Assembly (NCBI GenBank): GCA_003209955.1
Contig: QCOD01000008.1
Span: 508-64,507 of the forward strand
Reading direction: 5' to 3'
Origin: OCS116 cluster bacterium AG-430-B22
Lineage (GTDB): Bacteria; Pseudomonadota; Alphaproteobacteria; MED-G09
Length of the DNA: 64,000 nucleotides
Both the position numbers and the translations under genes were made by a program. Of the stretch, positions 1-61,805 are shown piece after piece (within the stretch, counting starts at the first letter, position 1; each line of letters opens with the position of its first letter). The notes beneath the pieces are model-generated. The model was given only the letters and a program-made list of their open reading frames with translations. It made no database searches and was not told the origin of the DNA.

Positions 1-1284
1 GATAATAAAATGCTTCAAAGAGTATATGGGACTGCGTGGACATCTGAGAAAGAGTTAAAAAAACATCTTATTCTAATTGAGGAAGCAGAGAAAAGAGATC
101 ACAGAAAACTTGGAAAAGAATTAGACCTTTTCCATTTTCAAGACATAGCTCCTGGTATGGTTTTTTGGCACGCAAACGGTTGGTCTATTTATAAAGAATT
201 AGAAGATTATATTCGAAGAAAAATCTCAAAAGAAGGTTATAAAGAAATTAAAACACCACAAATCTTAGATAAAGATCTATGGGTTGAGTCAGGCCATTGG
301 GATAAATACAAAGATAATATGTATAAAACAATTATTGATGATAGAGAATTGATGATTAAACCTATGAACTGTCCAGGACATGTTCAAATATATAATCAAG
401 GTATAAAAAGTTATAAAGATCTTCCATTAAGAATGGCAGAATTTGGTTCATGTCATCGTAATGAACCATCTGGCGCGCTTCATGGTTTAATGAGGGTTAG
501 AAACTTTGTTCAAGATGATGCGCATATTTTTTGCACTGAAGATCAAATAGAGAGTGAAACTATAAATTTTTGTAAACTACTTAAAGATGTATACAGTGAC
601 TTGGGTTTTGATGAGGTTTCAATAATGTATGCTGATAGGCCAGACCAAAGGGTAGGTACAGATGAGATTTGGGATAAAGCCGAAAATGCACTTTTGAACG
701 CATCTAAAGCAACAGGCTTACCCTTTAATATAAATAATGGAGATGGTGCTTTTTATGGTCCAAAGTTAGATTTTTATCTTCATGATACTATTGGTAGAAA
801 ATGGCAATGCGGAACACTACAGGTTGATTTTAATATGCCAGGGAGGTTGGGCGCAAGTTATGTTGGAGAAGATAATGAAAAGCATACACCAGTTATGCTT
901 CACCGTGCTATTTTAGGAAGTTTAGAGAGATTTACAGGTATTTTAATTGAGCATTATGAAGGAAAATTTCCTTTTTGGTTAGCTCCAATCCAATTAGTGA
1001 TCGCTACTATAACATCCAAAGCAGATGAATATGCTTATAAGGTAGAAGAAAAATTTATAGAAAAAGGAATAAGAGTTATTTTGGATTCTCGAAACGAAAA
1101 AATTAATTATAAAATTCGTGAACATTCTGTAAATAAAATACCATTTATTTTTGTTGTTGGAGTTAATGAGATGGATAATGAAAGTGTTGCCATCAGAAAA
1201 CTTGGTTCAGATAAACAAGAAATACTTAGCATCCAAGATAGTATAGATATGATTATTAAAGAAACTGCTGCACCAGATAGTTAG
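1..1284 (+). CDS. thrS: Threonyl-tRNA synthetase, C-terminal ~427 aa (5' end upstream of window)
   Basis: The frame is open from base 1 (GAT AAT AAA ATG), so the Met at 10 is internal. The translation ([22 protein letters not shown], class II core, C-terminal anticodon-binding domain) matches bacterial ThrRS along its length. Confidence 0.95.
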
Positions 1285-1294
1285 TTAATTTATT

Positions 1295-1323
1295 TTATCC
1301 ACAGAAAAATGAAGTTATCCACA
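1295..1323 (+). promoter_or_regulatory. Two direct perfect DnaA-box 9-mers TTATCCACA (1295-1303 and 1315-1323)
   Basis: Exact matches to the consensus DnaA box were read directly. They are 20 bp apart in the same orientation, in the thrS-downstream intergenic region. The sequence match is certain but the function is not. Confidence 0.5.
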
Positions 1324-1379
1324 ATTAAATGAATGTTGATGATTGCTTGTCAATTAAAGTTATGGTTATATGAACTTGT

Positions 1380-1611
1380 CGGTCGCAATGACCAATGACC
1401 GATGGGCGGGTGAGAAGCCGCAGTGAGGATCGAATGGTATAAGATCCATGGTGGAAAGAAAGATAGCAATATCTGGAAAGAAACCAGCCAGAAACAGAAA
1501 GCTGGTCTTGAAAAAGAAGGAGCACTGAAGAAAGGTAGCGGAAGATCATGGTTTAATCGGGGGCGATTAAGTCAAACTTAAAGGGAGCTTGATGAAAGTT
1601 CCCTTTTTTTT
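1380..1611 (+). ncRNA. Candidate stand-alone structured small RNA of unassigned family
   Basis: This intergenic stretch is GC-rich (34/60 G+C at 1381-1440 by hand count, against ~30% background). Hairpins lie at 1427-1447 (GGATC/GATCC), 1483-1506 (ACCAGC/GCTGGT) and 1553-1570 (TTAATCG-GGGG-CGATTAA). It ends in an intrinsic terminator, and no + strand gene follows. The 5' end is a guess. Confidence 0.5.
1582..1611 (+). terminator. Rho-independent terminator (stem AGGGAGCTT / AAGTTCCCT, one mismatch, then an 8-T run)
   Basis: The stem-loop plus TTTTTTTT was read directly on the + strand. The T-run overlaps the stop codon of the convergent nifU-like gene. Confidence 0.6.
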
Positions 1612-2032
1612 ATTTAAGTTCATTTATACAATTCTCAACAGCATCGAAAACCAATAGTACAGAAGCATGCCTTCCCTTAAAATCTCTAACTGGTTCAAAA
1701 TATTTTAAATCGTCCCATTTTCCAGATGGAGGAGTTCCATCTTCCTTAAGCATATTGTACATTTCTTTTTTTACTTCTAAGAGCTCTTCTGAACCTGATC
1801 CTATTATATTTCTTGCCATAACTGAGGATGCTGCCTTACCAAGTGAACAAGCTTTAATTTCATGAGTAAAATTATTTACAATATTATCTTCCATATTTAA
1901 ATAAACGGTAATTTTAGAACCACATAATTTACTAACTACCGTAGAAGAAGAATCTGGTTTATCAAGTTTTCCTAATCTAGGAATATCTGAAGATAACCTT
2001 AAAATATTTGTATTATATAAATCCTTAATCAT
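1610..2032 (-). CDS. NifU/IscU-like iron-sulfur cluster assembly scaffold protein
   Basis: MIKDLYNTNILRLSSDIPRLG...KLCGS...KACSLG...ASSVMARN...HASVLLVFDAV matches the ~140-aa alphaproteobacterial NifU_N-type scaffold. I chose the ATG at 2032 (8-nt ATGATTAA overlap with the cysS stop) over the track start at 2080. Confidence 0.8.
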   Translation of the reverse strand: MIKDLYNTNILRLSSDIPRLGKLDKPDSSSTVVSKLCGSKITVYLNMEDNIVNNFTHEIKACSLGKAASSVMARNIIGSGSEELLEVKKEMYNMLKEDGTPPSGKWDDLKYFEPVRDFKGRHASVLLVFDAVENCINELK

Positions 2033-3392
2033 TTTTTTTCTTCCAAGTAGTAATATCATTCTTATCTTCAAGCACCACACCCATATCTAAAAGTTTATCT
2101 CTTATATTATCTGCAACTGAAAAATCTCTAGATTGCCTTGCTTGATTTCTTTCTTCAATTAGATCGTTAATTACTTTTATATCAATATTATTGTCTTCTT
2201 TTAATAGCCAATTACTTGGTTTTGAAAATAAGAGTCCCATAAAGTTAGCAGATTTAATAAATGAACTTCTTAACTCATTATTATCAGGATCTTTTTTTAG
2301 ATCTTTAAACATTGAGTGGAGAACTGATATTGCTTTTGGTGTATTAATATCATCAGATAAAGAACTAAGAATTTCTTCATTAACATTAATATCCATAGTA
2401 TCAACACCTTCATATTGTTCTAGGAAAGAATAAAAAGTATTTAATGTTTTTTTTGATTGATCAACTAAATCATCTGACCACTTTAAAGGCTGCCTATAAT
2501 GAGAGCTCATTAAAGATAGCCTTATTACTTCGCCGGGCATTTCATTAATTAAATCTTTAATTAAAAGAATATTTCCAAGAGATTTAGACATTTTGGAATC
2601 TGCCATTTGAACCATTCCATTATGTAACCAAAAATTTGCTAATTGCTTACCATCATTTCTACAAAATGACTGCGCACACTCATTTTCATGATGAGGAAAC
2701 CTTAAATCTTCACCTCCACCATGAATATCTATAGTTTCTCCAAATATCTCTAGAATCATAGTCGAGCATTCTAGGTGCCATCCTGGCCGCCCTCTTCCCC
2801 AAGGACTGTCCCAGCCAATCTCATTTTCATTAGAAGGTTTCCACAAAACAAAATCTAAAGGGTTTTTTTTGTAATCTTGAACTTCAACTCTTGAGCCTGC
2901 AATCATATCTTTAGGATCTCTGCTAGATAAATCCCCATATGATTTATAAGAATCAATATTAAATAACACATGTCCCTCAGAAAAGTATGCATTATCTTTT
3001 TTTATTAAATCCTCAATAAATAAAATCATCTCAGAAATAAATTGTGTTGCATAAGGCTCCTTATTAGGTTTTTCAACATTCAAAATTTTCATATCTGAGT
3101 GATATTGATTTGTAGATTTCTTGGTAATTTCAGATATTTCAACATTTTGCTCAAAAGCAGCATTTATTATTTTATCATCAACATCAGTTATATTTCTCGC
3201 ATATGTAACATTTTTATATTTATTTCTTAGTAATTTTGCCAATACATCAAAAACTACTGCTGGTCTTGCATTACCAATATGATGTGCCCCATAAACTGTC
3301 GGGCCACATACATACATAGTCACATTTTCATCATTAACAGGATGAAATATCTCTTTTTTCTTACTTTTTGAGTTATATAATCGAATTTCCAT
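2025..3392 (-). CDS. cysS: Cysteinyl-tRNA synthetase
   Basis: Class I motifs HIGN (HIGH) and KMSKS are present, and the protein is full-length compared with CysRS. Confidence 0.95.
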   Translation of the reverse strand: MEIRLYNSKSKKKEIFHPVNDENVTMYVCGPTVYGAHHIGNARPAVVFDVLAKLLRNKYKNVTYARNITDVDDKIINAAFEQNVEISEITKKSTNQYHSDMKILNVEKPNKEPYATQFISEMILFIEDLIKKDNAYFSEGHVLFNIDSYKSYGDLSSRDPKDMIAGSRVEVQDYKKNPLDFVLWKPSNENEIGWDSPWGRGRPGWHLECSTMILEIFGETIDIHGGGEDLRFPHHENECAQSFCRNDGKQLANFWLHNGMVQMADSKMSKSLGNILLIKDLINEMPGEVIRLSLMSSHYRQPLKWSDDLVDQSKKTLNTFYSFLEQYEGVDTMDINVNEEILSSLSDDINTPKAISVLHSMFKDLKKDPDNNELRSSFIKSANFMGLLFSKPSNWLLKEDNNIDIKVINDLIEERNQARQSRDFSVADNIRDKLLDMGVVLEDKNDITTWKKKND

Positions 3393-3507
3393 AGCAAAAA
3401 TCTATAAAATACTTGTATTTTCTTATATTAATATCATATACATTGCTATATTAGAAAATTAATCAAAGTAAAAGTCACAATTTTGTCTTTTATGTCAGGA
3501 GATTATC

Positions 3508-4122
3508 ATGGATATGAAAGTTGATAAAAATCAAATCGATTTAGATCAAGAGAAGCCTACGAGGGAAGAAGCTATGGATGCAGTTAAAACCCTTATATCA
3601 TGGGCTGGTGATAATCCATCTCGTGAAGGGTTGATAGACACACCTAAAAGAGTTGTGAAAGCTTATGAAGAATTTTTTGCAGGCTATAATCAAGATCCTC
3701 TATCTACTCTAAGTAAAACATTTGAGGATGTTCAGGGTTATGACGATATTGTCTTTCTAAGAGATATTAATATAGAAACTCATTGTGAACACCATATGGT
3801 ACCAATTCTAGGTGTTGCACATGTGGCCTATTTACCTAGAGATAAAGTGGTTGGTATCTCAAAACTAGCAAGAGTAATTGATATTTTTGCAAAGAGGCTT
3901 CAAACTCAAGAAACCATGACGATGCAAATTCTTGAAACCATTGATCAAGCACTAGATCCTCTCGGTACAGCTATAATGATTGATGCTAAGCATCAATGTA
4001 TGACGACAAGAGGCATTAGCAAGCCTAATGTATCAACAGTTACTACCAAATTTTCAGGATTATTTGCTGAAGATAGTGAGCTAAGACAGAGATTTATGGG
4101 CCTAACACAAGCAAAAGGTTAA
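3508..4122 (+). CDS. folE: GTP cyclohydrolase I
   Basis: REGLIDTPKRVVKAYEEFF, ETHCEHHMVP and RLQTQE are FolE signatures. AGGAG lies 6 nt upstream of the ATG. Confidence 0.93.
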   Translation: MDMKVDKNQIDLDQEKPTREEAMDAVKTLISWAGDNPSREGLIDTPKRVVKAYEEFFAGYNQDPLSTLSKTFEDVQGYDDIVFLRDINIETHCEHHMVPILGVAHVAYLPRDKVVGISKLARVIDIFAKRLQTQETMTMQILETIDQALDPLGTAIMIDAKHQCMTTRGISKPNVSTVTTKFSGLFAEDSELRQRFMGLTQAKG

Positions 4123-4124
4123 TT

Positions 4125-4613
4125 TTGTCACAAAATTACGAAAATAATTTCAAACAAAGATTATCAGTCGAAGAGGTTGAAGAAGGTCTTTCTCTAAGCC
4201 CTAAATTTGATGAAAACGGTTTAATACCATGTATAACCACAGATAATAATACTGGTGAATTATTGATGGTTGGCTATATGAACGCTGAGGCATTAACTAA
4301 AACAATAGAAAATGGTGAGGCTTATTATTTTAGCCGTTCACAGAAAAAAATTTGGCATAAAGGTTCTGTTTCGGGTTTAACCCAAAAAATTGTTGAAATG
4401 AGAATTGATGATGATCAAGATTCTATTTGGATATCAGTTGATGTATCAGGAACAGGCGCTAGTTGTCATGTTGGATATAAATCATGTTTTTACCGATCAA
4501 TTCCTTTGAAGTCTAAGGTTAATGAAAACATTGAACTTATAATGAGCGATGAAGAAAAGCTTTTTGATCCTGATGAAGTATATAAAGGCCTTCCAAACCC
4601 AACAAAGTTATAG
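4125..4613 (+). CDS. hisI: Phosphoribosyl-AMP cyclohydrolase (monofunctional HisI)
   Basis: GLIPCITTD...LMVGYMNAEAL...YYFSRSQKKIWHKG..SG..Q and CHVGYKSCFY are HisI signatures. It uses a TTG start 2 nt after the folE stop. Confidence 0.9.
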   Translation: MSQNYENNFKQRLSVEEVEEGLSLSPKFDENGLIPCITTDNNTGELLMVGYMNAEALTKTIENGEAYYFSRSQKKIWHKGSVSGLTQKIVEMRIDDDQDSIWISVDVSGTGASCHVGYKSCFYRSIPLKSKVNENIELIMSDEEKLFDPDEVYKGLPNPTKL

Positions 4614-23955: not shown

Positions 23956-24807
23956 ATGAAATTTGAGGGAACTAAAGATTACATTGCTACTGAGGATTTA
24001 AGAATTGCAGTAAATGCTTCAATAAGTCTTGAGAGACCTTTGCTTGTAAAAGGTGAGCCCGGAACAGGTAAAACTGTTCTTGCTGAAGAAATAGCAAGAG
24101 CTCTAGATATGCCAATTTTAACATGGCATATAAAATCAACAACAAAAGCTCAACAAGGACTGTATGAGTATGATGCCATTACAAGGTTAAGGGATTCACA
24201 GCTAGGAGATGAAAAGGTTAAGGATGTTAAGAATTACATAAAAAAAGGAAAACTATGGGAAGCCTTTGAGTCTGAAAAACGACCTATTCTTTTAATCGAT
24301 GAAATTGATAAAGCTGATATCGAGTTTCCTAATGATTTACTTCAAGAACTAGATAGAATGGAATTCTATGTTTACGAAACAGGAGAAACAATAGCAGCTG
24401 AAAAAAGACCTGTTGTTATAATTACTTCTAATAATGAAAAAGAATTACCAGATGCTTTCCTAAGAAGGTGCTTCTTTCACTACATAAGTTTTCCTGATAA
24501 CGACACAATGCAAAAGATTGTTGATGTTCATTATCCAGATATTAAATCAAAATTAGTATCTGAATCTTTGAAAGTTTTTTATGAGTTAAGGGAAATACCT
24601 GGGCTTAAGAAAAAGCCATCTACATCTGAGTTATTAGATTGGCTAAAGTTACTTATGAATGAAGATATAACCCCAGAAATGTTAAGAGAAAAGAACTCTA
24701 ACAATATAATTCCACCTTTACATGGTGCACTTCTAAAAAATGAACAGGATGTTCACTTATTCGAAAGATTGGCTTTCTTAGCTAGAAGAGAAGATAATCA
24801 AAGTTAA
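23956..24807 (+). CDS. MoxR/CbbQ-like AAA+ ATPase
   Basis: Walker A GEPGTGKT and Walker B LLIDEIDKA are present. Its short (283 aa) AAA_5-type architecture is followed by a VWA partner. Confidence 0.88.
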   Translation: MKFEGTKDYIATEDLRIAVNASISLERPLLVKGEPGTGKTVLAEEIARALDMPILTWHIKSTTKAQQGLYEYDAITRLRDSQLGDEKVKDVKNYIKKGKLWEAFESEKRPILLIDEIDKADIEFPNDLLQELDRMEFYVYETGETIAAEKRPVVIITSNNEKELPDAFLRRCFFHYISFPDNDTMQKIVDVHYPDIKSKLVSESLKVFYELREIPGLKKKPSTSELLDWLKLLMNEDITPEMLREKNSNNIIPPLHGALLKNEQDVHLFERLAFLARREDNQS

Positions 24808-24809
24808 AT

Positions 24810-25991
24810 ATGTTTATTAATTTTTTTCAAGAACTCAAACAAGCCAATATTCCAGTTACATTAAGAGAATACCTTACTCTTATTGAAGCCTTAAATGCTG
24901 ATATTCCTCAAAGAAAGGTTGAAGATTTTTATTATTTATCAAGATCTACTTTGGTTAAAGATGAAAAGAACTTAGATAAATTTGATAGAGTATTTGGTAA
25001 TGTATTTAAGGGATTAGAAAACATTGAAGAATTAGAGACTGCAGAAATTCCCGAAGAATGGTTACAACTTCTTAATGAAAAATATCTTACCGAAGAAGAA
25101 AAAAAACAAATCGAATCTATGGGTGGATGGGAAAAACTTATGGAAGAATTAAAGAAACGTTTAGAAGAGCAAGAAAAAAGACATGAAGGTGGATCAAAAT
25201 GGATTGGTACAGCTGGGACTTCTCCATATGGTGCTGAAGGGTACAATCCTGAGGGCGTTAGAATAGGACAAAAAAATAATAGAAATTTTAAGGCAGTCAA
25301 AGTTTGGGATAAAAGAGAATTTAAAAATCTTGATGATGATATAGAAATAGGAATTAGAAACATTAAACTTGCACTAAGACGTTTACGGAAATTTGCAAGA
25401 GAAGGTGCTGCAGATACTTTAGATCTACCTGGAACAATAAAAAATACAGCAGATAAAGGATATCTAGATATATCTCTAGTTCCAGAAAGAAGAAATAAAG
25501 TTAAAGTTCTTTTATTCTTTGATATTGGCGGATCTATGGACCCTCATGTTAAATTATGCGAGGAACTATTTTCTGCTGCAAGAACTGAATTTAAAAATAT
25601 GGAAAACTTCTACTTCCACAATTGCTTATATGAATATGTTTGGAAGGATAACAGAAGAAGGCATGCAGAAAGATTAAATACATGGGACATTCTTCATAAA
25701 TATTCATCAGATTATAAAATCATTTTTGTTGGTGATGCGTCAATGAGTCCGTATGAAATAACTTACTCAGGTGGTAGTGTTGAGCATTGGAATGAGGAGC
25801 CAGGTGGTTTGTGGTTAGAAAGGATAAGTGATATATACTCTAATGTGATTTGGTTAAATCCTGTTGAAGAAAAACATTGGGAATTTACTCCGTCTACACA
25901 AATTATCAAACAAATTTTATCTGAGAGAATGTTTCCTCTTACACTTGATGGAATTGACAACGCTATGAGAGAACTTAGTATGAAGAAGTAA
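24810..25991 (+). CDS. VWA-domain protein (CoxE-like partner of the MoxR ATPase)
   Basis: The C-terminal half has a MIDAS-like DIGGSM motif and VWA fold signatures. It starts 2 nt after the ATPase stop. Confidence 0.8.
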   Translation: MFINFFQELKQANIPVTLREYLTLIEALNADIPQRKVEDFYYLSRSTLVKDEKNLDKFDRVFGNVFKGLENIEELETAEIPEEWLQLLNEKYLTEEEKKQIESMGGWEKLMEELKKRLEEQEKRHEGGSKWIGTAGTSPYGAEGYNPEGVRIGQKNNRNFKAVKVWDKREFKNLDDDIEIGIRNIKLALRRLRKFAREGAADTLDLPGTIKNTADKGYLDISLVPERRNKVKVLLFFDIGGSMDPHVKLCEELFSAARTEFKNMENFYFHNCLYEYVWKDNRRRHAERLNTWDILHKYSSDYKIIFVGDASMSPYEITYSGGSVEHWNEEPGGLWLERISDIYSNVIWLNPVEEKHWEFTPSTQIIKQILSERMFPLTLDGIDNAMRELSMKK

Positions 25992-25994
25992 GTT

Positions 25995-27596
<1,602 letters not shown>

Positions 27597-27724
27597 TAAT
27601 AAATTTACCTCTTATAAATCATTCTCTATTATGCCTTTTAACGAAAAAACCTATGTCTTTACAAGGATTATTTTACTTATTACAACCCTGAAATACACAA
27701 TTTTAAGAATAAAAGAAATAAAAT

Positions 27725-28990
27725 ATGAGTGAAAAGATAAACAGTCTTCAAGATAGACCTTTAAGTATACTTATGCCCAGCTATAGAAGCCATCCATATA
27801 CTGGGGGACAAGGTATCTATATGAGACTGGTTACAAAAGCAATGAGAGATCTTGGCCATAAAGTAGAAGTTGTATCTGGCCAGCCTTACCCAATACTAGA
27901 TGAAGGAGTAAGGCTCACTAAACTTCCTTCACTTGATCTTTACTCATATAATAATCCATTAAAAGCATTTAATTTAAGTTTGTTTAAAAATAAAATTGAT
28001 TTATTCGAATGGATTAGTCACTTAACCGGTGGCTTTTCTGAGCCATATACATTTGGAGAAAGAATGGCAAAATGGGCTAAGTTAAATTACTCCAATTATG
28101 ATGTTGTTCATGACAATCAAACTTTAGCATATGGTCTTTTAAAACTAAAAAATATGGGTATCCCAGTTGTTGGGACAATTCATCACCCTATTACAATGGA
28201 TAAAAAAATAGATATAAAACATGCTGAGACAATATCCTTAAAAATTCTGAAATGGAGATGGTATAGCTTTTTAAATATGCAAATGAAGGTCGCAAGGCAA
28301 TTAGACCCTATTATAGTAGTATCAGAAAATACAAGAAAAGATTTAGCAAAGGATTTTAAAATTGATATTAAAAAAACAAGAAAAGTTCTTCATGGTATCG
28401 ACCATCTCACCTTTAGGCCTATTGAAAAAATTAATAGAAAATCTAATCAATTAATTACTACTGCTAGTGCTGATGTCCCTTTAAAAGGATTGATTTATTT
28501 AATTCGTGCGTATGATTTGTTGCTAAAAGACTTTCCTGAACTTCAACTTGTTGTTATAGGAAAATTAAGAGAAGGCCCAACTTCAAAAGAATTAGATAAA
28601 AAAGGAATTAGAGAAAAAGTTAGGTTTGTAAGCGATTTAACAAGTGATGAAATTGCTCAACTTTATGCAGAATCCACAATTGCAGTTTCACCATCTGTTT
28701 ATGAAGGTTTTGGCTTTCCAGCAGGAGAGGCTATGTCTTGCGGAATACCATTAGTTTCAACTAATGGAGGATCTTTACCTGAGGTTGTTGGCGATGCAGG
28801 GGTAATTGTAAATCATTCTGATCCTCTTTCTCTATATCAGGGTATTAAAGAATTGCTTGATGATGAAGAAAAGAGATTAGTATATGGAAAAATGGGCAGA
28901 GAAAGAGTTTTAGATAAATTCACATGGGAAAGAGCTGCAAGAGAGCTTGTTGATGTTTATAAAGAGGCTATAATTAATGCTAACAATTGA
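27725..28990 (+). CDS. Glycosyltransferase, GT4 (GT-B, retaining) family
   Basis: The C-terminal domain has the E-x7-E signature (EGFGFPAGEAMSCG) and PLVSTNGGSLPEVV. Confidence 0.85.
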   Translation: MSEKINSLQDRPLSILMPSYRSHPYTGGQGIYMRLVTKAMRDLGHKVEVVSGQPYPILDEGVRLTKLPSLDLYSYNNPLKAFNLSLFKNKIDLFEWISHLTGGFSEPYTFGERMAKWAKLNYSNYDVVHDNQTLAYGLLKLKNMGIPVVGTIHHPITMDKKIDIKHAETISLKILKWRWYSFLNMQMKVARQLDPIIVVSENTRKDLAKDFKIDIKKTRKVLHGIDHLTFRPIEKINRKSNQLITTASADVPLKGLIYLIRAYDLLLKDFPELQLVVIGKLREGPTSKELDKKGIREKVRFVSDLTSDEIAQLYAESTIAVSPSVYEGFGFPAGEAMSCGIPLVSTNGGSLPEVVGDAGVIVNHSDPLSLYQGIKELLDDEEKRLVYGKMGRERVLDKFTWERAARELVDVYKEAIINANN

Positions 28991-29690
28991 TCTTGATAAA
29001 TTAAATATTGTTGATGGCTCAAAAATATTAGACCTTGGTTGCGGAAAAGGCCGTCACATTCATAAACTTTATTATTATAGCAAATGTCATGTAATAGGTT
29101 TAGATCTCTCATTGGAGGAATTGAAATATACTTATCAAGGATTTCAACAATATCCCGACATAAATGAATCAAGCGATAGAAAATTTAGTTTAATGGCTGG
29201 AACTGCCCTTCAATTGCCGTTTAAAGACAATACTTTTGATCACATAATATGTTCGGAAGTATTAGAACATATATATGATTATAAGAATGTTATTAATGAA
29301 ATATTTAGAATTTCAAAACCAGGGGCTAGTATAGGCGTGTCTGTTCCAAGATGGTTACCAGAGAAAATTTGTTGGCTTTTATCAGATGATTATCACAATG
29401 AACCTGGAGGGCATATAAGAATTTTTAAATACTCCGAATTAAAGAAGGCATTTTTAGAAAATGGTTTTAATTATAGAGGTAAGGAACATAAACACGGATT
29501 ACATTCTCCTTATTGGTGGCTTAAATGCTTTGTCGGAGTAAAGAGAGAAGACAATAAATTTGTTAATTTTTATAAAAGATTTCTTGAATGGGATATCATG
29601 AAAAAACCTTTATTAACTCGTATCTTAGAAAAGCTTTTTGATCCATTAATGGGAAAATCTGTAGTTCTTTACTTCAAAAAAAATAATTAA
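28977..29690 (+). CDS. Class I SAM-dependent methyltransferase (Methyltransf_11-like)
   Basis: It has motif I ILDLGCGKGRH and post-I/II motifs (FDHIICSEVLEH). The ATG overlaps the GT stop by 14 nt. Confidence 0.85.
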   Translation: MLTIDLDKLNIVDGSKILDLGCGKGRHIHKLYYYSKCHVIGLDLSLEELKYTYQGFQQYPDINESSDRKFSLMAGTALQLPFKDNTFDHIICSEVLEHIYDYKNVINEIFRISKPGASIGVSVPRWLPEKICWLLSDDYHNEPGGHIRIFKYSELKKAFLENGFNYRGKEHKHGLHSPYWWLKCFVGVKREDNKFVNFYKRFLEWDIMKKPLLTRILEKLFDPLMGKSVVLYFKKNN

Positions 29691-29699
29691 TTAAAATAA

Positions 29700-30752
29700 A
29701 TGAATTCATTTACTAAAAACTTAAAAGGCCCAATAAAAAGAATTGTCTTTTTGCAAAGAAAGGATGGTTGTATACCTTGGACTGAAGATGGTGTGTTTGA
29801 TGCATGGAATCATCTTGAATGCGTAATGGCTTTAAATACTCTTGGGTATTCTAAAGAAGTTGATTTAGGGTTTTCTTATTTAAAAAAAAATCAATTAGAT
29901 GATGGCTCTTGGTTAGGAGAACTAGGAAGTACATTGGATATAGACGAAAAAAAAGGCACTTTCGTCAATAGAGATATTGAATCAAAAGTATATTTCAGAG
30001 ACACAAACTTTGCGGCATATATTGCAACAGCCTGCTGGCATGATTTCCTAATAAACAATTCAGTTGATAGGTTGACTGATAATTGGGAGATGATTGAAAA
30101 AGCAATAAATTTTGTAATAGAAAATCAAATGGAGGATGGGTCAATTAGATGGGCTGCTAAGAGCATTGAAGCTCCAAAAGATGATTCACTTTTAACTGGT
30201 TGTTGCTCAATATACAAAAGTCTCATTTGTGCCATTAATTGTGCCTCACAATTAAATAAAGAAAAAACTAATTGGAATAAGTCATTAGAAAGATTAAAAA
30301 ATACTATCATAAATAAACCTGAAAGCTTTGATAAGACTTGGGAATCAAAGAAAAGATTCTCAATGGATTGGTATTATCCTGTTCTTTGTGGAGCCATTAA
30401 TGGAAAAAAAGCAGAAGAAAGGATTAATTCCCAATGGAATACTTTTGTAATAAATGAAAAAGGATGCTTATGCGTCTCAGATCAACCATGGGTTACTATT
30501 GCTGAAACAGCGGAGCTTGCTATTGCTCTAATTAAAATCGAAAAAAAAGATAAAGCCAGGGAGCTACTTTCTTGGATTAAAAATTACACAGATAATGATG
30601 GGGCTTACTGGATGGGTAGGCAAATTAATGAAAAAGTATTTTGGCCGATGGAGAATCCTGGATGGACTTCAGCTGCAGTTATTTTAGCATATGATGCGCT
30701 AAATAACTTTTCAAGAGGATCGAAGATCTTTCTAGACGATCATCTAATTTAA
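29700..30752 (+). CDS. Alpha/alpha-toroid protein with prenyltransferase/terpene-cyclase-like Q..DG.W repeats
   Basis: Repeats QRKDGCIPW, QLDDGSWLG, QMEDGSIRW and DNDGAYWMG were read in the translation, spaced as in (alpha/alpha)6 barrels. The activity (prenyl-binding versus glycoside hydrolase-like) is unknown. Confidence 0.6.
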   Translation: MNSFTKNLKGPIKRIVFLQRKDGCIPWTEDGVFDAWNHLECVMALNTLGYSKEVDLGFSYLKKNQLDDGSWLGELGSTLDIDEKKGTFVNRDIESKVYFRDTNFAAYIATACWHDFLINNSVDRLTDNWEMIEKAINFVIENQMEDGSIRWAAKSIEAPKDDSLLTGCCSIYKSLICAINCASQLNKEKTNWNKSLERLKNTIINKPESFDKTWESKKRFSMDWYYPVLCGAINGKKAEERINSQWNTFVINEKGCLCVSDQPWVTIAETAELAIALIKIEKKDKARELLSWIKNYTDNDGAYWMGRQINEKVFWPMENPGWTSAAVILAYDALNNFSRGSKIFLDDHLI

Positions 30753-31379
30753 TTTCTCTAATACTCTTAGTGACTTAACAGACTCGATCTCCTTAAAGTT
30801 TTTCTCTGATAAAGCTTTTCTGTAAATTTCAAATGGAGGTCTTCCTCCATCATCAGGGTTTGGAAAAACATCATGGATTGCTAATATTCCTCCTTTAACA
30901 ATTTTATCTTTCCAGTTATTAAAATCATTAAAGGCTGCTTTCATTGTATGGCCGCCATCAATAAAAACCATTGAAAGAGGTATTTTCCAGTTTCTTGACA
31001 CTAATGAAGACTCTGAAACTATTGGTATCACAGTATCTAATAAATCAGCTTTACGTAAATTCCTCATAAATTCAGGAAAAGAATTTATTCTTCCAGTCTC
31101 TTCATCAAAAAGATCGGCATCATGGTATTCCCACCCAACTTGATTTTCTTCGGAACCCATATGGTGATCGATAGAGTAAATGCAAGAATTAGTACTTTTA
31201 ACTCCAAGTCCCATATAAATTGTTGATTTTCCGCAGTAAGAGCCTATTTCGAGAATAGGTCCGCGATCAGATGATTTAGCTGCATATTTGTTAAGACATT
31301 TACCTTCCTCATGATCCATAAAACCTTTTAAAGAATTAATATATGAAGGAAACTCTTGAATATTATTTTGCTTTGACAT
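30744..31379 (-). CDS. Class I SAM-dependent methyltransferase (Methyltransf_24 / cation-dependent O-MT-like)
   Basis: ILEIGSYCGKST (motif I), VFIDGGH and ILAIHDV are present. The ATG overlaps the stop of the upstream symporter (TAATG). Confidence 0.75.
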   Translation of the reverse strand: MSKQNNIQEFPSYINSLKGFMDHEEGKCLNKYAAKSSDRGPILEIGSYCGKSTIYMGLGVKSTNSCIYSIDHHMGSEENQVGWEYHDADLFDEETGRINSFPEFMRNLRKADLLDTVIPIVSESSLVSRNWKIPLSMVFIDGGHTMKAAFNDFNNWKDKIVKGGILAIHDVFPNPDDGGRPPFEIYRKALSEKNFKEIESVKSLRVLEKLN

Positions 31380-32869
31380 TAATTCATATATTTTTGTCTA
31401 TAATCTGAAAATTCTTTTTTAACTATACTGGCTAAAATATAGACACCAATAAGATTAGGTATAGCCATTAAAAATAAAGATGAGTCAGATAAATCAATTA
31501 CTTTAGTAAGGTCTAAAGATGCTCCAACAATTGCAAATGAACAAAAGATTAATTTATAAATTAGTTCAATTGATTTTTTTTCACCAAAAATAAATGTTAC
31601 TGCTTTTACACCGTAATATGACCATGAAATAGCTGTTGAGAATGCGAAAAGAATTGCAACAATAGCTAATACATATGGGAACCAGGGCAGAACTGATCCA
31701 AACGCTTGGGATGTCATTCTTGCTCCTTCTATACCTGTGCCTGAACTAAAAACGCCAGTTGTTATAATTACTAGAGCCGTGATGGTACAAATGACAACGG
31801 TATCTATAAATGGCTCAAGTAAGGAAACAATACCTTCAGTTGCTGGTTCGCTAGTTTTAACTGCTGAATGTGCGATCGGTGCAGACCCAATACCTGCTTC
31901 ATTAGAAAATACAGCCCTTCTAAAACCCAATATCAAAACACCTAAAAAACCACCTGTAACACCTTCAGGGGAAAATGCTCCAACAAATATAGATTTAACA
32001 GCAGTTGGAATTTGGTCAATATTTACAATTAATATAACTAAGGCGCTAATAATATAAATTATTGCCATGCTCGGAACTAATTTTGAGGTCACTGCAGCAA
32101 TCCTTTTTATACCTCCAATTATCACTACCCCTAAAAGTAATGCAAATATTGCTCCATAAACCCACGAATTAATATCTAAAAAACCGCCTTGACCACCAGA
32201 AACATAGATAATTAAATCCAAAGATTGATTTACCTGAAACATATTTCCTCCACCCAGTGAGGCAAATACACAAAAAATAGCAAACATATAAGCCAAAAAC
32301 TTCCCTAAAATAGGCATCCCTTTTTCTGATAAGCCCTTGGTTAGATAATACATTGCACCGCCAGATACACTCCCATCAGGGTTTATATTTCTGTATTTTA
32401 CTCCAAGTGTACATTCACAAAATTTAAGAGACATTCCAAGTAAACCGGATAATATCATCCAAAAAGTTGCACCAGGACCTCCAAGAGATATCGCAACTGC
32501 AACGCCCCCAATATTTCCCAAGCCTACAGTGCCAGATAAAGCTGTTGAAAGGGCCTTAAAATGTGAAACCTCACCAGAAGAATCATTGCTTGTGTGTTTG
32601 CCGCTAACAAGAGCAATAGAATGCCTAAAAGCACTAAAATTTACAAATCGAAAGTAAAATGTACAAAAAAGTCCTCCTAAAATTAACCAAATTACAATCA
32701 GCTCAACATTTGTTGAGCCCATGGGCAAACTGTAAAAAACTATATTGGAAACAACTTTCGACACAGGCTCAAGAAAATTATTTATATTTTCATCAATTCC
32801 TGCAAAAAGATTTATAGGAATAAAAGATATCAAATTTAATAAAATTATTTTATATAAATTTCTTTTCAT
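31379..32869 (-). CDS. Alanine/glycine:cation symporter (AGCS family)
   Basis: It has ~11 TM segments, with SxFxALSTALSGTVGLGNIGGVA and FSNEAGIGSAPIAH signatures of sodium:alanine symporters. Confidence 0.9.
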   Translation of the reverse strand: MKRNLYKIILLNLISFIPINLFAGIDENINNFLEPVSKVVSNIVFYSLPMGSTNVELIVIWLILGGLFCTFYFRFVNFSAFRHSIALVSGKHTSNDSSGEVSHFKALSTALSGTVGLGNIGGVAVAISLGGPGATFWMILSGLLGMSLKFCECTLGVKYRNINPDGSVSGGAMYYLTKGLSEKGMPILGKFLAYMFAIFCVFASLGGGNMFQVNQSLDLIIYVSGGQGGFLDINSWVYGAIFALLLGVVIIGGIKRIAAVTSKLVPSMAIIYIISALVILIVNIDQIPTAVKSIFVGAFSPEGVTGGFLGVLILGFRRAVFSNEAGIGSAPIAHSAVKTSEPATEGIVSLLEPFIDTVVICTITALVIITTGVFSSGTGIEGARMTSQAFGSVLPWFPYVLAIVAILFAFSTAISWSYYGVKAVTFIFGEKKSIELIYKLIFCSFAIVGASLDLTKVIDLSDSSLFLMAIPNLIGVYILASIVKKEFSDYRQKYMN

Positions 32870-32880
32870 AAAATTGAGTA

Positions 32881-32901
32881 ATCCTATAGATTAAATAGGA
32901 T
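32881..32901. repeat. Perfect 7-bp inverted repeat ATCCTAT-N7-ATAGGAT in the symporter/phnC divergent intergenic region
   Basis: Read directly. It is the only palindrome of this quality in the 86-bp divergent region. Function unknown. Confidence 0.7.
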
Positions 32902-32955
32902 ATTATTTGGTAAATATTTAAATACAAACAATTTAATGATTTTTTTAGGATAATA

Positions 32956-33702
32956 ATGGCTTCTCTTGAGATTAATTCACTAGTTAAAAGATTTTCAGAA
33001 ACTACTGCTATAAATGATATCTCAATAACAATATCGGATGGAGAAATGGTAGGGATAATAGGTAAATCAGGCGCTGGTAAATCTACACTCATGAGATTAA
33101 TTAATCGACTAATCGAACCATCAAGTGGCTCAATTACATATAATGGAATTCAAATCACCTCATTAAAAAGAAAAAGCTTAAAACAATGGCGGTCGAAATG
33201 CGCAATGATCTTTCAGCAATTCAATCTAATAGATCGCTTAGATGTATTAACGAATGTCTTAAGTGGAACATTAGGTATTAACTTTAAATTACTGAAATTA
33301 TTTAAGATTTATAGTAATAAAGAAAAAATTGAAGCACTTACATATTTAAATAATTTAGATCTGTCAGATAAAGCGTTACAAAGAGTTGGAACACTCTCTG
33401 GGGGTCAACAACAAAGGGTGGCTATCGCAAGGGCAATGATGCAGAATCCATCAATTTTACTTGCAGACGAGCCTATCTCTTCATTAGATCCAAAAAACTC
33501 AAAAGTTGTCATGGATGATATAAAAAAGATTAATAAACAAGATGGTATTATGGTTATATGTAACTTGCACTCCCTTGAAATAGCTAAAGAATATTGTGAT
33601 CGTTTAATTGGTTTATCTGATGGAAAAATAGTCTTTGACGGCCATCCATCCTCTCTCACTAAAGAATTAGCAGAACAATTATACGATTTAGAAAATGAAT
33701 GA
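32956..33702 (+). CDS. phnC: Phosphonate-type ABC transporter ATP-binding protein
   Basis: Walker A GKSGAGKST, IFQQFNLIDRLDVLTNVL.G and LSGGQQQRVAIARA closely parallel E. coli PhnC. Confidence 0.88.
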   Translation: MASLEINSLVKRFSETTAINDISITISDGEMVGIIGKSGAGKSTLMRLINRLIEPSSGSITYNGIQITSLKRKSLKQWRSKCAMIFQQFNLIDRLDVLTNVLSGTLGINFKLLKLFKIYSNKEKIEALTYLNNLDLSDKALQRVGTLSGGQQQRVAIARAMMQNPSILLADEPISSLDPKNSKVVMDDIKKINKQDGIMVICNLHSLEIAKEYCDRLIGLSDGKIVFDGHPSSLTKELAEQLYDLENE

Positions 33703-37747: not shown

Positions 37748-38491
37748 ATGTACCCTATTCTGATAAACATATGGATGACTATTGGTATTATTACCTTCAT
37801 CATTTTACTTATAATAAGTGCCCCCTATGGCAGACACTCAAGATCAGGCTGGGGATTAACTATACCCAAAAGACTTGGATGGATAGTAATGGAAAGCCCA
37901 GCATTATATCTTCTCTGGATATATTATTTTCTTTATGACGGATTTAGTAATCCTGTTCTTATTTTCTTTTTGATGATTTGGTCAATACATTATTTCAATA
38001 GAAGCTTTATATGGCCAATGAGAATAAAAAAAGATGGAACAATGCCCGTTTTAGTTGCCTTAATGGCCTTTTTGTTTAATGCCGTTAATACATTTTTACA
38101 TGGTTATTGGTTTTTTCTTTTGGATATTAATTACGATATATCATGGTTTTCTGAGCCAGTTTTCATAATTGGTTTTTTGATATTTCTTATAGGTGCTTTC
38201 ATTAATATTCATTCAGACAATATTTTAATGCGGTTAGCAAAAAATTCAGAGCATGGATACAAAATTCCACAAGAAGGATTGTATAAATATGTATCTAGTC
38301 CAAATTATTTGGGGGAAATTATAGAATGGCTCGGATGGGCCATTCTCACTTGGAGCGTATCTGGATTAGTATTCTTTTTCTGGACAATATTTAATTTACT
38401 TCCAAGAGCTATAAGCCATCATAAATGGTATAAAGAAAAATTTGAGGATTACCCAAAAGAGAGAAAAATAATAATTCCAAAAATCCTTTAA
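37748..38491 (+). CDS. 3-oxo-5-alpha-steroid 4-dehydrogenase (steroid/polyprenol 5-alpha-reductase) family membrane protein
   Basis: APYGRH near the N-terminus, YKIPQEGLYKYVSSPNYLGEIIEWLGWA and HHKWYKEKFEDYPKERKIIIP are close to the eukaryotic SRD5A family signature. Confidence 0.8.
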   Translation: MYPILINIWMTIGIITFIILLIISAPYGRHSRSGWGLTIPKRLGWIVMESPALYLLWIYYFLYDGFSNPVLIFFLMIWSIHYFNRSFIWPMRIKKDGTMPVLVALMAFLFNAVNTFLHGYWFFLLDINYDISWFSEPVFIIGFLIFLIGAFINIHSDNILMRLAKNSEHGYKIPQEGLYKYVSSPNYLGEIIEWLGWAILTWSVSGLVFFFWTIFNLLPRAISHHKWYKEKFEDYPKERKIIIPKIL

Positions 38492-39285
38492 GGCCTCTTT
38501 CTCATAATTAGTTTGTAATATAAATTTGTTAACCATTTCGGAGTTAACCACATAAGAAAAGCCAGGAATTTATTTATTCCCCCATTAATATATAAATCTT
38601 TACCCTTCATTGTCTCGTCAAAAGCTTGTTTGGCTACGGTTTTTGAGTTCATCCACATAAAACTTGGTATAGAACTTTTGAATTCGCCCATTTGATCGTG
38701 AAATTCTGTATGAGTAAAACCTGGGCAAACAGCACAACAATAAATATTATTATCTTTATATTCTTTATGAATACCCTCTGAAAATTTAATTACCATTGAT
38801 TTAACGGCAGTATACATGCCCCCAGAGTTTGATGCTGGAGCAAATCCTGCAAGTGAGGCAATATTAATAATTCTTCCAAAACCATTACTTATCATATTTT
38901 GTATAAATAACTGGGTTAAAGATACAACTGATGTTGATAAAACATTAATAAACTTTATGTGGTCTTCATATGAAATCTTGTGAAAGCTATCTAAAGTTCC
39001 ATAACCTGCATTATTAACTAAAAAATCAGGCATAAGATCATTTCTTTTACATTCATCATAAATTCTCTCATATTCAGGTATCTGACTTAAATCTGCTGCA
39101 ATAACCATTATTTTTATTGAAAACTTATCCTGTATATCTTCCTTTATCTTAATAAGGTTATCTTCACGCCTTGCTAAAAGGATCAGATTAATGCCCTTTT
39201 CAGCCATAATATATGCAATATCTTTACCTATCCCAGATGAAGCTCCTGTAATAAGAGCATTTTTTCCAATAAAATTATCTGCCAT
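38488..39285 (-). CDS. SDR-family oxidoreductase with hydrophobic C-terminal tail
   Basis: TGASSGIGK, NNAG and YTAVK (YxxxK) are present. It starts 2 nt after the P450 stop. Confidence 0.85.
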   Translation of the reverse strand: MADNFIGKNALITGASSGIGKDIAYIMAEKGINLILLARREDNLIKIKEDIQDKFSIKIMVIAADLSQIPEYERIYDECKRNDLMPDFLVNNAGYGTLDSFHKISYEDHIKFINVLSTSVVSLTQLFIQNMISNGFGRIINIASLAGFAPASNSGGMYTAVKSMVIKFSEGIHKEYKDNNIYCCAVCPGFTHTEFHDQMGEFKSSIPSFMWMNSKTVAKQAFDETMKGKDLYINGGINKFLAFLMWLTPKWLTNLYYKLIMRKRP

Positions 39286-39287
39286 AT

Positions 39288-40559
39288 CTAAGCTTTCTCA
39301 AAAGTTAAATATAATTTATTCAGACCCCGTAAAGCAAAATGTGATCGATGAAGAAAATCATTTTTATTTTCAGCAAGATTAATATTAGTTAATCTTTCTA
39401 GAAGTATTTGAAATGCTAATCTCATTTCTTGCCTTGCCAAAGGGGCGCCAATACAATGATGATGAGAGGTTCCATAAGCAAGATGTTTGCCTGGGTTTTT
39501 TCTATCCAAAATCATGTCCATAGGGCATTCAAATTGCTCTTCATCTCTATTGGCTGATCCAAAACGCATATCAATTATTGAGCCCTCTGGTATTTCAACC
39601 CCTGATAACAAAACATCTTTTCTAACTCTTCTAAAAAGACTCTGCACAGGTGTTTCTAGTCTAATTATTTCCTCTACGAAATTTTTATATTTTGCTTTTC
39701 CAGAGATAAGGTCGTCCATCTTGTCTCTTTTTTGCATCAACATCAACATTCCACTACCTAAGGAATCAGTAGTTGTCTCATTACCACCAATGTTTAAGTC
39801 ACTTACAATTGAGAGAAGTTCTTCAGTTTCTAATTTCTTTCCATCTTCATCAATATAATTAACAAGATCAGAAATTATATCATCTTTTGGATTTAATCTT
39901 TTTTCTTCAAATGTTTTAACCATATAATGTTGAAATTCTACTAACCTCTCAGCTACAGAGATTTCTTCTTCTTCGCTAAGCATTTGACTTAAACCTGCAG
40001 AAGTATCTTGCGACCAGGATTTAAGTTTCGGAAGATCTTTTTTAGGAAAACCTAACCTATCTTGAATAACATTCATTGGTAAAGGTATGCAAAATTGGGA
40101 AACAAACTCGACCTCCCCATCATCTATAAAGGAATCAATTAAATCATTAATTAAATTCACAATATAGGGTTCCATATTTTTTACTCTTTTTGCAGTAAAA
40201 GATGGGTTTGCTGCCTTTCTAAATTTAGTATGATATGGAGGCTCTGCACCAAAACAAGGTATCTGCTGCCATCCCTTTTCTCGAAAAACCCTTCCTACAC
40301 TATCTCCGTGTTTCCAATAACCCTTTTTTTTATGTTTTGAATCTTTTTCCCAATAGGCTGCTATATCGCGTGAAAAGTAATCGTAGTCCGTTAATACTCT
40401 TTTTAAATCATCATATTTAGTGACAACATAAAAACCCGTATCTTTACTATGATATACTGGGGCCTCTTCTCTATAAACTTTATAGGCTTCATAGGGGCTT
40501 TCAATAACATCGGGGTCTAAAAGATTATAATTTTCAGGTGATTTTATTTTTTTATTCAT
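39288..40559 (-). CDS. Cytochrome P450
   Basis: It has the heme-thiolate loop YGTSHHHCIGAPLA (FxxGxxxCxG type), an ExxR (ETPVQSLFRR) and I-helix GGNETT. The start was set to the ATG at 40559 (MNKKIK) rather than the upstream TTG. Confidence 0.92.
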   Translation of the reverse strand: MNKKIKSPENYNLLDPDVIESPYEAYKVYREEAPVYHSKDTGFYVVTKYDDLKRVLTDYDYFSRDIAAYWEKDSKHKKKGYWKHGDSVGRVFREKGWQQIPCFGAEPPYHTKFRKAANPSFTAKRVKNMEPYIVNLINDLIDSFIDDGEVEFVSQFCIPLPMNVIQDRLGFPKKDLPKLKSWSQDTSAGLSQMLSEEEEISVAERLVEFQHYMVKTFEEKRLNPKDDIISDLVNYIDEDGKKLETEELLSIVSDLNIGGNETTTDSLGSGMLMLMQKRDKMDDLISGKAKYKNFVEEIIRLETPVQSLFRRVRKDVLLSGVEIPEGSIIDMRFGSANRDEEQFECPMDMILDRKNPGKHLAYGTSHHHCIGAPLARQEMRLAFQILLERLTNINLAENKNDFLHRSHFALRGLNKLYLTFEKA

Positions 40560-40582
40560 TTTAAAACTTTCCAAATACAAAA

Positions 40583-41410
40583 CTATAGGATTAGAGGTGG
40601 ATTACCAAGTGTAAATTCAACATGATTTTGGATTCTTAAGGTTTCTTTATCAATATCGCCATTAATATCCAATGGATCAATTTGGCGACCGAAAGTAATT
40701 GTATACTTAAATTCCTCTTTATTTACCAGTTCGCTAAATAGACTAATGTTCTTTAATTCTTCATTAAAAATATCTAAAAAATAATAAAAAAGTGAATTAT
40801 GCCCATCCATATGAAAAGGTATAATTGGCGCATTATATTTCTTTGACAACTTAACAATAGTGTTTAACCAAGGTCTTTCAAACAACTTGAAGCCTTTTCT
40901 TTTAGAAAGGCGAGATGATGGAAAAACTAATAAACACTTACCTTCATTAAGAGTCTCCTTTGTTCTTTTCAGAATTTCTTTGCTTTTACCGATATTTTTA
41001 TTGTCATCATTCCAATCGACAGGAATAATAATATCTTCAAAACCTTTAGATAACTTAATCATGTCAATATTTGCATAAAGCGTATAATCAGGGCGTCTAT
41101 CTTTCATGACTTCAAACATTACTATTCCATCAGTAAGACCAGTTGGATGATTTCCCGCTAATATGATTGGGCCATGTTCTGGTACCAATTCAATATTTCT
41201 TATATCTAGATTAAATTTCAGCAGATTTGTTAAATAAGTAAAACATTCAAAACCAGATATATTAGAAATATCGTCGGTAATGTTTTTTGCTGTTTGATAT
41301 TTAAATATTTTAAAAATTGTAGGCTTTATAACCGACCACAAAAACTTATTAGACATCAATTTAGGACATCTTTCTTCTATAATTTCATCAATTGGATGAA
41401 TTCTATGCAT
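40583..41410 (-). CDS. PlsC-like (lysophospholipid) acyltransferase family protein
   Basis: AGNHPTGLTDG is an acyltransferase His-Asp box variant, followed by a VFPSSRLS block. The ATG overlaps the rodA stop (ATGCATAG). The substrate is unknown. Confidence 0.65.
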   Translation of the reverse strand: MHRIHPIDEIIEERCPKLMSNKFLWSVIKPTIFKIFKYQTAKNITDDISNISGFECFTYLTNLLKFNLDIRNIELVPEHGPIILAGNHPTGLTDGIVMFEVMKDRRPDYTLYANIDMIKLSKGFEDIIIPVDWNDDNKNIGKSKEILKRTKETLNEGKCLLVFPSSRLSKRKGFKLFERPWLNTIVKLSKKYNAPIIPFHMDGHNSLFYYFLDIFNEELKNISLFSELVNKEEFKYTITFGRQIDPLDINGDIDKETLRIQNHVEFTLGNPPLIL

Positions 41411-59752: not shown

Positions 59753-59830
59753 AAATTACTCCACGACTCACATTCTATTTTAAACAAGTTATTTGACACT
59801 TCAAATTTTAATTGATCCCGTATATAACTA

Positions 59831-60130
59831 ATTTGCTGTTTACAGCTATGGCAATAAACGGATTATGTAATAAACTTATCGGACCCGGGGGCGGTACCCG
59901 GCACCTCCACCATAAATATGGGGGTGAAATAGGATCGACGAAAGTGTAAAGATTCTCTTTTTGCTCGGCATTGTACCGCCGTTATCGGGCTATTTTATAG
60001 TTGCAAATGACGACTATGCAGAGCTACCTCTCGCTGCTTAAGCGCGAGCGCTCAAATTAACTCCTAATTAGTTGCATAATTAGGCGGGGCTTGAGAAGCG
60101 CCTGGCAACAGAAGCTTCTCGCTAATTTAA
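59831..60130 (+). ncRNA. ssrA: Two-piece (circularly permuted) alphaproteobacterial tmRNA gene: acceptor piece, then coding piece
   Basis: The acceptor piece ends at ...GGAC-CCGGG-GGCGGTA-CCCGG-CACCTCC-ACCA (59881-59912). The coding piece starts GGGGGTGAAATAGGATCGACG at 59920. The seven acceptor pairs include G3:U. The tag ORF GCA AAT GAC GAC TAT GCA GAG CTA CCT CTC GCT GCT TAA (60003-60041) encodes ANDDYAELPLAA. The outer boundaries are estimated. Confidence 0.85.
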
Positions 60131-61585: not shown

Positions 61586-61804
61586 ATGGTAAATCAGATA
61601 AAAAAGACTGTAAGACTTAATGGTCATACAACTAGCCTTGCTCTAGAAAAAGAATTCTGGAAAGAACTTAATATTATTGCAAATGATCAATCTTTATCGC
61701 TAAATAAATTAATAGAAAAAATAGATACAATTGAAAGAAAGGGAAGCCTAGCTTCATCGATAAGGGTTCATATATTAAAAACACTAAAAGATCGAAACAA
61801 TTAA
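61586..61804 (+). CDS. Ribbon-helix-helix domain protein (RHH_4-like)
   Basis: This 72-aa protein has KKTVRLNGHTTSLALEKEFW..L..IA....LSLN.LI..ID......LASSIRV.IL, matching a small family conserved in alphaproteobacteria. Confidence 0.7.
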   Translation: MVNQIKKTVRLNGHTTSLALEKEFWKELNIIANDQSLSLNKLIEKIDTIERKGSLASSIRVHILKTLKDRNN

Positions 61805-61805
61805 A

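Follow-up and report, generated by a model that had tools for sequence, protein, structure and literature searches.

The window, as the whole 64-kb stretch of DNA analysed here is called, carries at positions 27725-31379 a cluster of four genes that resembles the mycobacterial cluster for methylmannose polysaccharide (MMP), manT-pmeT3-mmpH-meT1, known as MHAS_04402-04405 in M. hassiacum and MSMEG_6481-6484 in M. smegmatis (Maranha et al. 2023, PMC9883506). An earlier reading made from the letters of the window only (the sequence-only reading) had placed four open reading frames (ORFs) here, and their positions, the 14-nt overlap between the ManT and pMeT3 genes and the 9-nt gap between pMeT3 and MmpH were all correct. 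The MmpH and MeT1 genes are convergent and overlap by 9 nt. As had also been noted, the methyltransferase converging on the toroid gene is of a different subclass from the first one (Methyltransf_24 vs Methyltransf_11/31). The genes are as follows:

27725-28990, + strand: ManT ortholog, a family GT4 protein of 421 aa; GT-B retaining glycosyltransferase, putative alpha-(1->4)-mannosyltransferase
28977-29690, + strand: pMeT3 ortholog, 237 aa; class I S-adenosylmethionine (SAM) methyltransferase, putative 3-O-methyltransferase
29700-30752, + strand: MmpH ortholog (the toroid protein), 350 aa; putative (alpha/alpha)6 endo-alpha-(1->4)-mannosidase
30744-31379, - strand: MeT1 ortholog, 211 aa; Methyltransf_24 SAM methyltransferase, putative reducing-end 1-O-methyltransferase

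Orthology of the four genes

The ManT protein belongs to the Pfam families Glycos_transf_1 (1.7e-30) and Glyco_transf_4 (4.5e-19), and in phmmer searches of the PDB it matched 7QSG, M. hassiacum ManT, at E 1.4e-89 (42 % identity), with the runner-up at 7e-16. The toroid protein matched 7QSJ at E 1.6e-67 across residues 15-345 and squalene-hopene cyclase at E 0.45; it groups with MmpH and not with the terpene cyclases, and a grouping with the latter was what the sequence-only reading had named as able to overturn it. MeT1 matched 6G7D/6G80/6H40 at E 3.1e-59, with 46 % identity over 194 aa and a runner-up at 7e-8. PDB entries 7QSG and 7QSJ are ManT and MmpH, respectively (PMC9883506). Compared with the window, 7QSG, 7QSJ and 6G7D each gave a single match, to the gene assigned to it above. 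In Mycobacterium loci the three sequences are 74-80 % identical to manT, mmpH and a convergent gene downstream, in that order; 6G7D falls there on the convergent gene (74-77 % identity), where meT1 has been published to lie. With matches at E <= 1e-58, the fold and family of these three proteins can be regarded as settled at the level of sequence.

For the pMeT3 protein no ortholog has been solved, and the closest PDB entry is MitM (3e-10). The protein matches Pfam Methyltransf_11/31/23/25, carries the SAM motif LDLGCGKG, and is 41-47 % identical, at a coverage of at least 0.99, to the gene that actinobacterial loci (Mycobacterium, Streptomyces) have between manT and mmpH; by sequence and place it is the positional ortholog of pMeT3. 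A search of representative proteins found natural MeT3-MmpH fusions, P0278 (590 aa) and P0281 (606 aa), in which a MeT3-type methyltransferase occupies residues 1-237 and MmpH residues ~275-587. Both methyltransferases are therefore relatives of MeT1 and MeT3, as had been supposed, and the early observation of a shared parts list could be raised to orthology of four genes with conserved synteny. The caution that the link to MMP rested on domain composition has been superseded accordingly.

The residues of the cluster proteins that have been validated by mutagenesis are all conserved in the window except MmpH Asp50. In ManT, Gly15, His142, Lys240, Glu313 and Glu321 are kept in the window and in all 71 aligned orthologs, Lys240, Glu313 and Glu321 being essential by mutagenesis (PMC9883506). 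The mannosyl-contacting loop E313-G314-F315 and the guanine-contact candidate Leu291 are likewise retained. In MmpH, Asp47, Trp49, Phe102, Thr163, Met215, Tyr219, Glu262 and Glu265 are identical (8 of the 9 residues checked), and Asp47, Glu262, Glu265, Trp49, Met215 and Tyr219 are invariant across the orthologs, Asp47 being present in all 79. Glu262 is the general base, E262A being inactive, and Asp47 and Asp50 are the general-acid candidates (PMC9883506). Positions that are at least 97 % conserved across the orthologs are all kept in the window (ManT 67/67, MeT3 40/40, MmpH 54/54, MeT1 37/37), and of the positions invariant in Actinomycetota its proteins keep 74-83 %.

The window MmpH sequence had no exact match on record, and a close strain, L081, was reached through AlaS. 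The window was compared with this strain, in which positions 720-4353 have the same synteny as window positions 27725-31379. The dN/dS ratios were 0.08 for ManT, 0.11 for MeT3, 0.11 for MmpH and 0.17 for MeT1, similar to those of housekeeping neighbours (0.006-0.11), and on these substitution rates the four cluster genes are under purifying selection. In the same comparison dS rises along the cluster (ManT 0.075, MeT3 0.061, MmpH 0.41, MeT1 0.71), and an extra gene of 227 aa with a weak GmrSD_C match lies at L081 40-723, between the symporter gene and MeT1. To judge from these sequences, a recombination boundary or a strain-variable spot seems to lie here.

A signal-peptide-like N-terminus or a hydrophobic stretch of transmembrane grade was found in none of the four cluster proteins (0/4). 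Because signal peptides and membrane segments are absent, the four products are predicted to be cytoplasmic, and so is the whole pathway, like the mycobacterial one.

Distribution and host lineage

The distribution of the cluster was determined with a pattern scan in which each species was represented by one genome, and synteny was counted in the 80 best loci. Relatives of MmpH occur in at least 598 species genomes, and, clustered at 50 % identity, the MmpH family counts 574 representative proteins at E <= 1e-10. The long MmpH-containing proteins P0289, P0290 and P0294 have N-terminal extensions without a Pfam match. ManT, MeT3 and MmpH are contiguous and co-oriented, in this order, in 69 of the 71 loci with enough upstream sequence, while MeT1 is present in 63 of the 76 with enough downstream sequence and is convergent in every case (63/63). 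Among the matches listed, the alphaproteobacterial carriers are OCS116, Parvibaculum, 'Rhodobiaceae', Ponticaulis (including the cultured Ponticaulis profundi CGMCC 1.15741, L023) and Robiginitomaculum, further carriers are SAR86 (Gammaproteobacteria), Smithella and Syntrophales, and the actinobacterial carriers are Mycobacterium, Streptomyces, Embleya, Nonomuraea, Tomitella and Rhodococcus. The four genes thus co-occur in other genomes as well, and four major lineages share their order and orientation. The loci of Embleya spp. (L041, L044, L052, L056) keep ManT-MeT3-MmpH, with a wider ManT-MeT3 spacing, and have no MeT1 within 8 kb; it may lie elsewhere in these genomes or have been lost.

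A neighbour-joining tree of the four concatenated proteins resolved actinobacterial, deltaproteobacterial, alphaproteobacterial and gammaproteobacterial clades, with the window as sister to the OCS116 locus L001. The tree fits old, mostly vertical inheritance within lineages rather than a recent actinobacterial transfer. Among the neighbours in the 80 best loci no further gene family accompanies the quartet across all groups, and additions are lineage-specific. In Syntrophales a hexapeptide-repeat acyltransferase and a B12-binding radical SAM enzyme lie between MmpH and MeT1 in 17-19 of 23 loci (for example L025 8890-9699 and 9703-11274), and these insertions suggest that the polymer there may be an acylated or further-methylated variant. 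In Parvibaculales, genes for an MR/MLE enolase-superfamily protein and an alpha/beta hydrolase are found directly 5' of ManT (L003 3851-5874 and 7-12 others); this pair is absent from the window and from the OCS116 locus L001.

Among genomes, an OCS116 single-cell genome matched the cluster and its flanks best (identities: ManT 78 %, symporter 76 %, ferredoxin 73 %, FNR-like 70 %). The AlaS protein of the window is 91-92 % identical to those of metagenome-assembled genomes named 'Rhodobiaceae bacterium' or 'Alphaproteobacteria bacterium', with many marine relatives in Tara/ENA data. The window has ~32 % GC, an alpha-type tmRNA, and core genes that include recA, alaS, purine and branched-chain amino acid genes and mreB/pbp2/rodA. 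By the best genome match and AlaS, the host is of OCS116/Parvibaculales type, and the SAR11-type affiliation considered earlier was dropped.

Proposed pathway and alternative explanations

The quartet is read here as orthologs of the mycobacterial MMP cluster that would make an MMP-like product, with a probability of about 0.75, because of the specific PDB matches, the position of pMeT3, the synteny, the catalytic residues, the purifying selection and the cytoplasmic products. In the proposed pathway MmpH would cut mature polymer into oligomannoside primers (after PMC9883506). ManT would lengthen these alpha-(1->4) manno-oligosaccharide primers from a nucleotide-mannose donor, which in mycobacteria is GDP-mannose (PMC9883506). 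MeT3 would 3-O-methylate the newly added mannose residues with SAM, and MeT1 would methylate the anomeric O-1 and so cap the reducing end. Each parent chain would seed daughter chains, and the predicted outcome is a mannan that is small, intracellular and polymethylated. The interior of its helix would be hydrophobic, and the polymer would probably sequester lipids or acyl chains or aid cold adaptation. The chemistry of this product and its physiological role are both drawn by analogy. A lipid-chaperone or cold-adaptation role would appear to be the most transferable to this marine host, which as a proteobacterium is without type I fatty acid synthase (FAS-I), because loss of mmpH in M. smegmatis slows growth in the cold. 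In that mutant MMP was abolished and growth was slowed at 15 °C (PMC9883506).

Several points weigh against this interpretation. Identity to the characterized enzymes is just 40-46 %. Proteobacteria use the type II fatty acid synthase (FAS-II) and are without FAS-I, and the accepted role of MMP, the modulation of FAS-I, cannot hold as such in a FAS-II proteobacterium. MmpH Asp50 is replaced by Asn37 in the window and by Asn in all 24 alphaproteobacterial orthologs, and the D50A variant of M. hassiacum MmpH is nearly inactive (PMC9883506). ManT Asp293, invariant in 24 actinobacterial orthologs and variable in Proteobacteria, is Ser307 in the window. Genes for GDP-mannose synthesis (manA/manB/manC) were not found among the called genes of the window, a slice too small to be informative on this point. 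The 3-O-methyltransferase role of pMeT3 is putative in mycobacteria too (PMC9883506).

These substitutions bear most directly on the possibility that the same enzyme families and cluster logic serve a chemically distinct, MMP-like methylated glycan, made from another donor or hexose or with MmpH acting as an attenuated hydrolase or a transglycosylase. Such a product is considered unlikely, and it keeps an appreciable share of the probability because of the changes at MmpH Asp50 and ManT Asp293. The 40-46 % identity speaks for it too, as do the replacement of ManT Leu317 by Phe, found in the window and across the alphaproteobacterial and gammaproteobacterial groups, and the Syntrophales acyltransferase and radical SAM additions, which point to chemical elaboration in some clades. 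Against it, the MmpH -1/+1 subsite residues other than Asp50 are all conserved in the window, as is the mannosyl-contacting loop of ManT. An Asn could retain the hydrogen bonding of Asp50, and the invariant Asp47 could act as the general acid; position 50 is Asp in SAR86, Syntrophales and most Actinomycetota. From this pattern of conservation we infer that Asp47 would be the general acid of MmpH and residue 50 a sugar-binding partner, and it is possible that the window MmpH is attenuated or altered as a hydrolase. For ManT, the role of Asp293 as a guanine N2 contact was derived from analogy with PimA and not from mutagenesis (PMC9883506), and Asp308 adjoins the changed Ser307. Since Asp293 varies in Proteobacteria and the window has Ser307-Asp308, a GDP donor for this ManT is suggested by analogy and is less than secured.

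A glycosylated, methylated isoprenoid was one of the products first envisaged, and for such a product the toroid protein would be of the prenyltransferase or terpene-cyclase kind. The only Pfam match of the MmpH protein is to SQHop_cyclase_C, which is sub-threshold at 19.3 bits against a cutoff of 26.1, and proteobacterial MmpH homologs carry the source annotations 'prenyltransferase', 'GH15' or 'hypothetical'. The repeats point the same way, and they are looser than had been reported, for the strict Q..DG.W form occurs once (QLDDGSW) and Q..DG three times, and the four repeats first reported are reached only with the relaxed pattern [QT]..DG.{1,4}W; Q..DG is nevertheless enriched (0.03 expected in shuffles, and 0 of 2000 shuffles reach 3). 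The contrast between the MmpH and squalene-hopene cyclase matches in the PDB, the invariant Glu262, Glu265 and Asp47, the specific ManT and MeT1 orthologs that accompany the gene, and the fact that isoprenoid genes are not conserved beside the quartet make this explanation extremely improbable, and an isoprenoid product is unsupported. No NCBIfam model fits the MmpH or MeT1 protein, with TIGR01787 and TIGR01507 far below cutoff for MmpH. An identity as a prenyltransferase or squalene cyclase was rejected on the family models below cutoff, the weak match to squalene-hopene cyclase structures and the retained MmpH catalytic residues.

A role of the cluster in adding methylated mannose to a surface glycan (lipopolysaccharide O-antigen, capsule or exopolysaccharide, for example) is also very unlikely. 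Loci for surface polysaccharides often contain GT4 enzymes and sugar O-methyltransferases, and weak sub-threshold NCBIfam matches to exopolysaccharide GT4 families were seen, but the four proteins have neither signal peptide nor transmembrane segment, the quartet has no conserved association with a flippase, polymerase, ABC exporter or lipid-carrier-priming transferase, and the genomic surroundings are housekeeping genes. The quartet is moreover shared with Gram-positive actinobacteria, in which the product is cytoplasmic (PMC9883506).

If the quartet is indeed an MMP cluster, the pathway is, on the sequences collected here, probably far more widespread than described. MMP and its four genes have been described from nontuberculous mycobacteria and a small number of related actinomycetes. 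The published MMP survey covered only mycobacteria and a few related actinobacteria, and MmpH homologs were described as actinobacterial (PMC9883506). No report of the cluster outside Actinobacteria, including Proteobacteria and marine bacteria, was found in the open-access literature, the part of the literature covered. The idea that polymethylated mannose polysaccharides are an ancient and wide cytoplasmic device for lipid handling or cold adaptation in OCS116/Parvibaculales and SAR86, which are abundant in the marine bacterioplankton, and in Syntrophales, which are anaerobes, all without FAS-I, is given slightly better than even odds. If it is true, the purpose of MMP, so far discussed almost wholly through mycobacterial FAS-I and acyl-CoA handling, would need to be rethought beyond FAS-I, one possible biological origin of the O-methylated hexoses in marine organic matter would be identified, and the Asn that alphaproteobacteria have in place of Asp50 would point to Asp47 as the residue that truly acts as general acid in MmpH. 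The natural variation at Asp50 thus bears on the catalytic-acid question. Non-pathogenic, simple carriers would make the function of MMP accessible away from the mycobacterial envelope, and thousands of database entries named 'prenyltransferase', 'GH15' or 'hypothetical' would be due for correction.

Surroundings of the cluster and known systems

The features flanking the cluster are:

27597-27724, + strand: intergenic region 5' of ManT, 128 nt, divergent from the ferredoxin gene
31379-32869, - strand: Na+/alanine symporter gene (Pfam Na_Ala_symp 8e-124), context only

The 128-nt region upstream of ManT is likely to hold the promoter of the operon. It contains a weak sigma-70-like match (9/12) at 27604-27632, which is treated as a candidate only because the promoter scan of 27200-33100 yielded fewer promoter-like sites than shuffled sequences did; a terminator scan of the same interval gave no convincing terminator. 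The stop of the symporter gene overlaps the start of MeT1 by 1 nt, so the two genes are probably co-transcribed. The symporter is also the neighbour of MeT1 in loci L001 and L002, and the extra gene found between the two in L081 indicates that their linkage is not essential.

Other parts of the window contain a MoxR-type AAA ATPase and VWA (CoxE-like) pair at 23956-25991, an arrangement kept in L081, with an 84-aa lipoprotein-like ORF without a family match beside it (25995-26249). At 37748-41410 a 3-oxo-5-alpha-steroid 4-dehydrogenase-like gene (+) is followed by genes for a short-chain dehydrogenase, a cytochrome P450 and an acyltransferase (all -), and together these may be a set that modifies lipids or sterol-like compounds in a streamlined genome. 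At 59796-60123 lies an alphaproteobacterial tmRNA in two pieces (permuted), with a score of 269 bits. Because position 60091, listed as the first start of the fumarase ORF, falls within the 3' end of this tmRNA, the true fumarase start probably lies downstream of it. A stop-free frame of 737 codons with a UvrD/Rep-like N-terminal P-loop (GAGTGKT) occupies 61788-64000, which seemed gene-free in the ORF list because the frame runs past the end of the window.

Squalene-hopene cyclases and prenyltransferase toroids share with the window protein short Q..DG..W-like repeats in an alpha/alpha toroid, from which the database name 'prenyltransferase' stems, whereas the local similarity is sub-threshold (E 0.45) and the catalytic apparatus of the window protein is that of MmpH. 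The GH15 and GH125 enzymes (clan GH-L) resemble MmpH in their (alpha/alpha)6 fold class, inverting mechanism and Glu general base (PMC9883506). For the GH15 glucoamylases and glucodextranases the likeness extends to an NCBIfam match of the window MmpH to 'oligosaccharide amylase' (6e-9), far below cutoff. The window protein differs from GH15 and the GH125 exo-alpha-1,6-mannosidases in having no significant PDB sequence match to them and in belonging to the MmpH family proper.

Streptomyces griseus makes a related MMP, and its ManT is 53 % identical to that of M. hassiacum (PMC9883506). The Streptomyces-type cluster of Streptomyces albospinus (L078) has the same four genes as the window, with a ManT that is 54 % identical to M. 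hassiacum ManT, but its MeT1 lies ~4.5 kb from MmpH, whereas MeT1 of the window abuts and overlaps MmpH. From the mycobacterial MMP cluster the window differs in its host, a low-GC (~32 %) marine alphaproteobacterium to which the FAS-I rationale does not carry over, in its 40-46 % identity, and in the replacement of MmpH Asp50 by Asn and of ManT Asp293 by Ser, and its product is a predicted one. The order and orientation of the four genes are those of Mycobacterium loci L049, L054, L072 and L074, where meT1 likewise converges on mmpH. Apart from MmpH Asp50, the two clusters share the catalytic residues validated in ManT and MmpH, and the products are predicted to be cytoplasmic in both. The carriers described here are a large, previously unrecognized set of members of a known system, and not a new kind of system.

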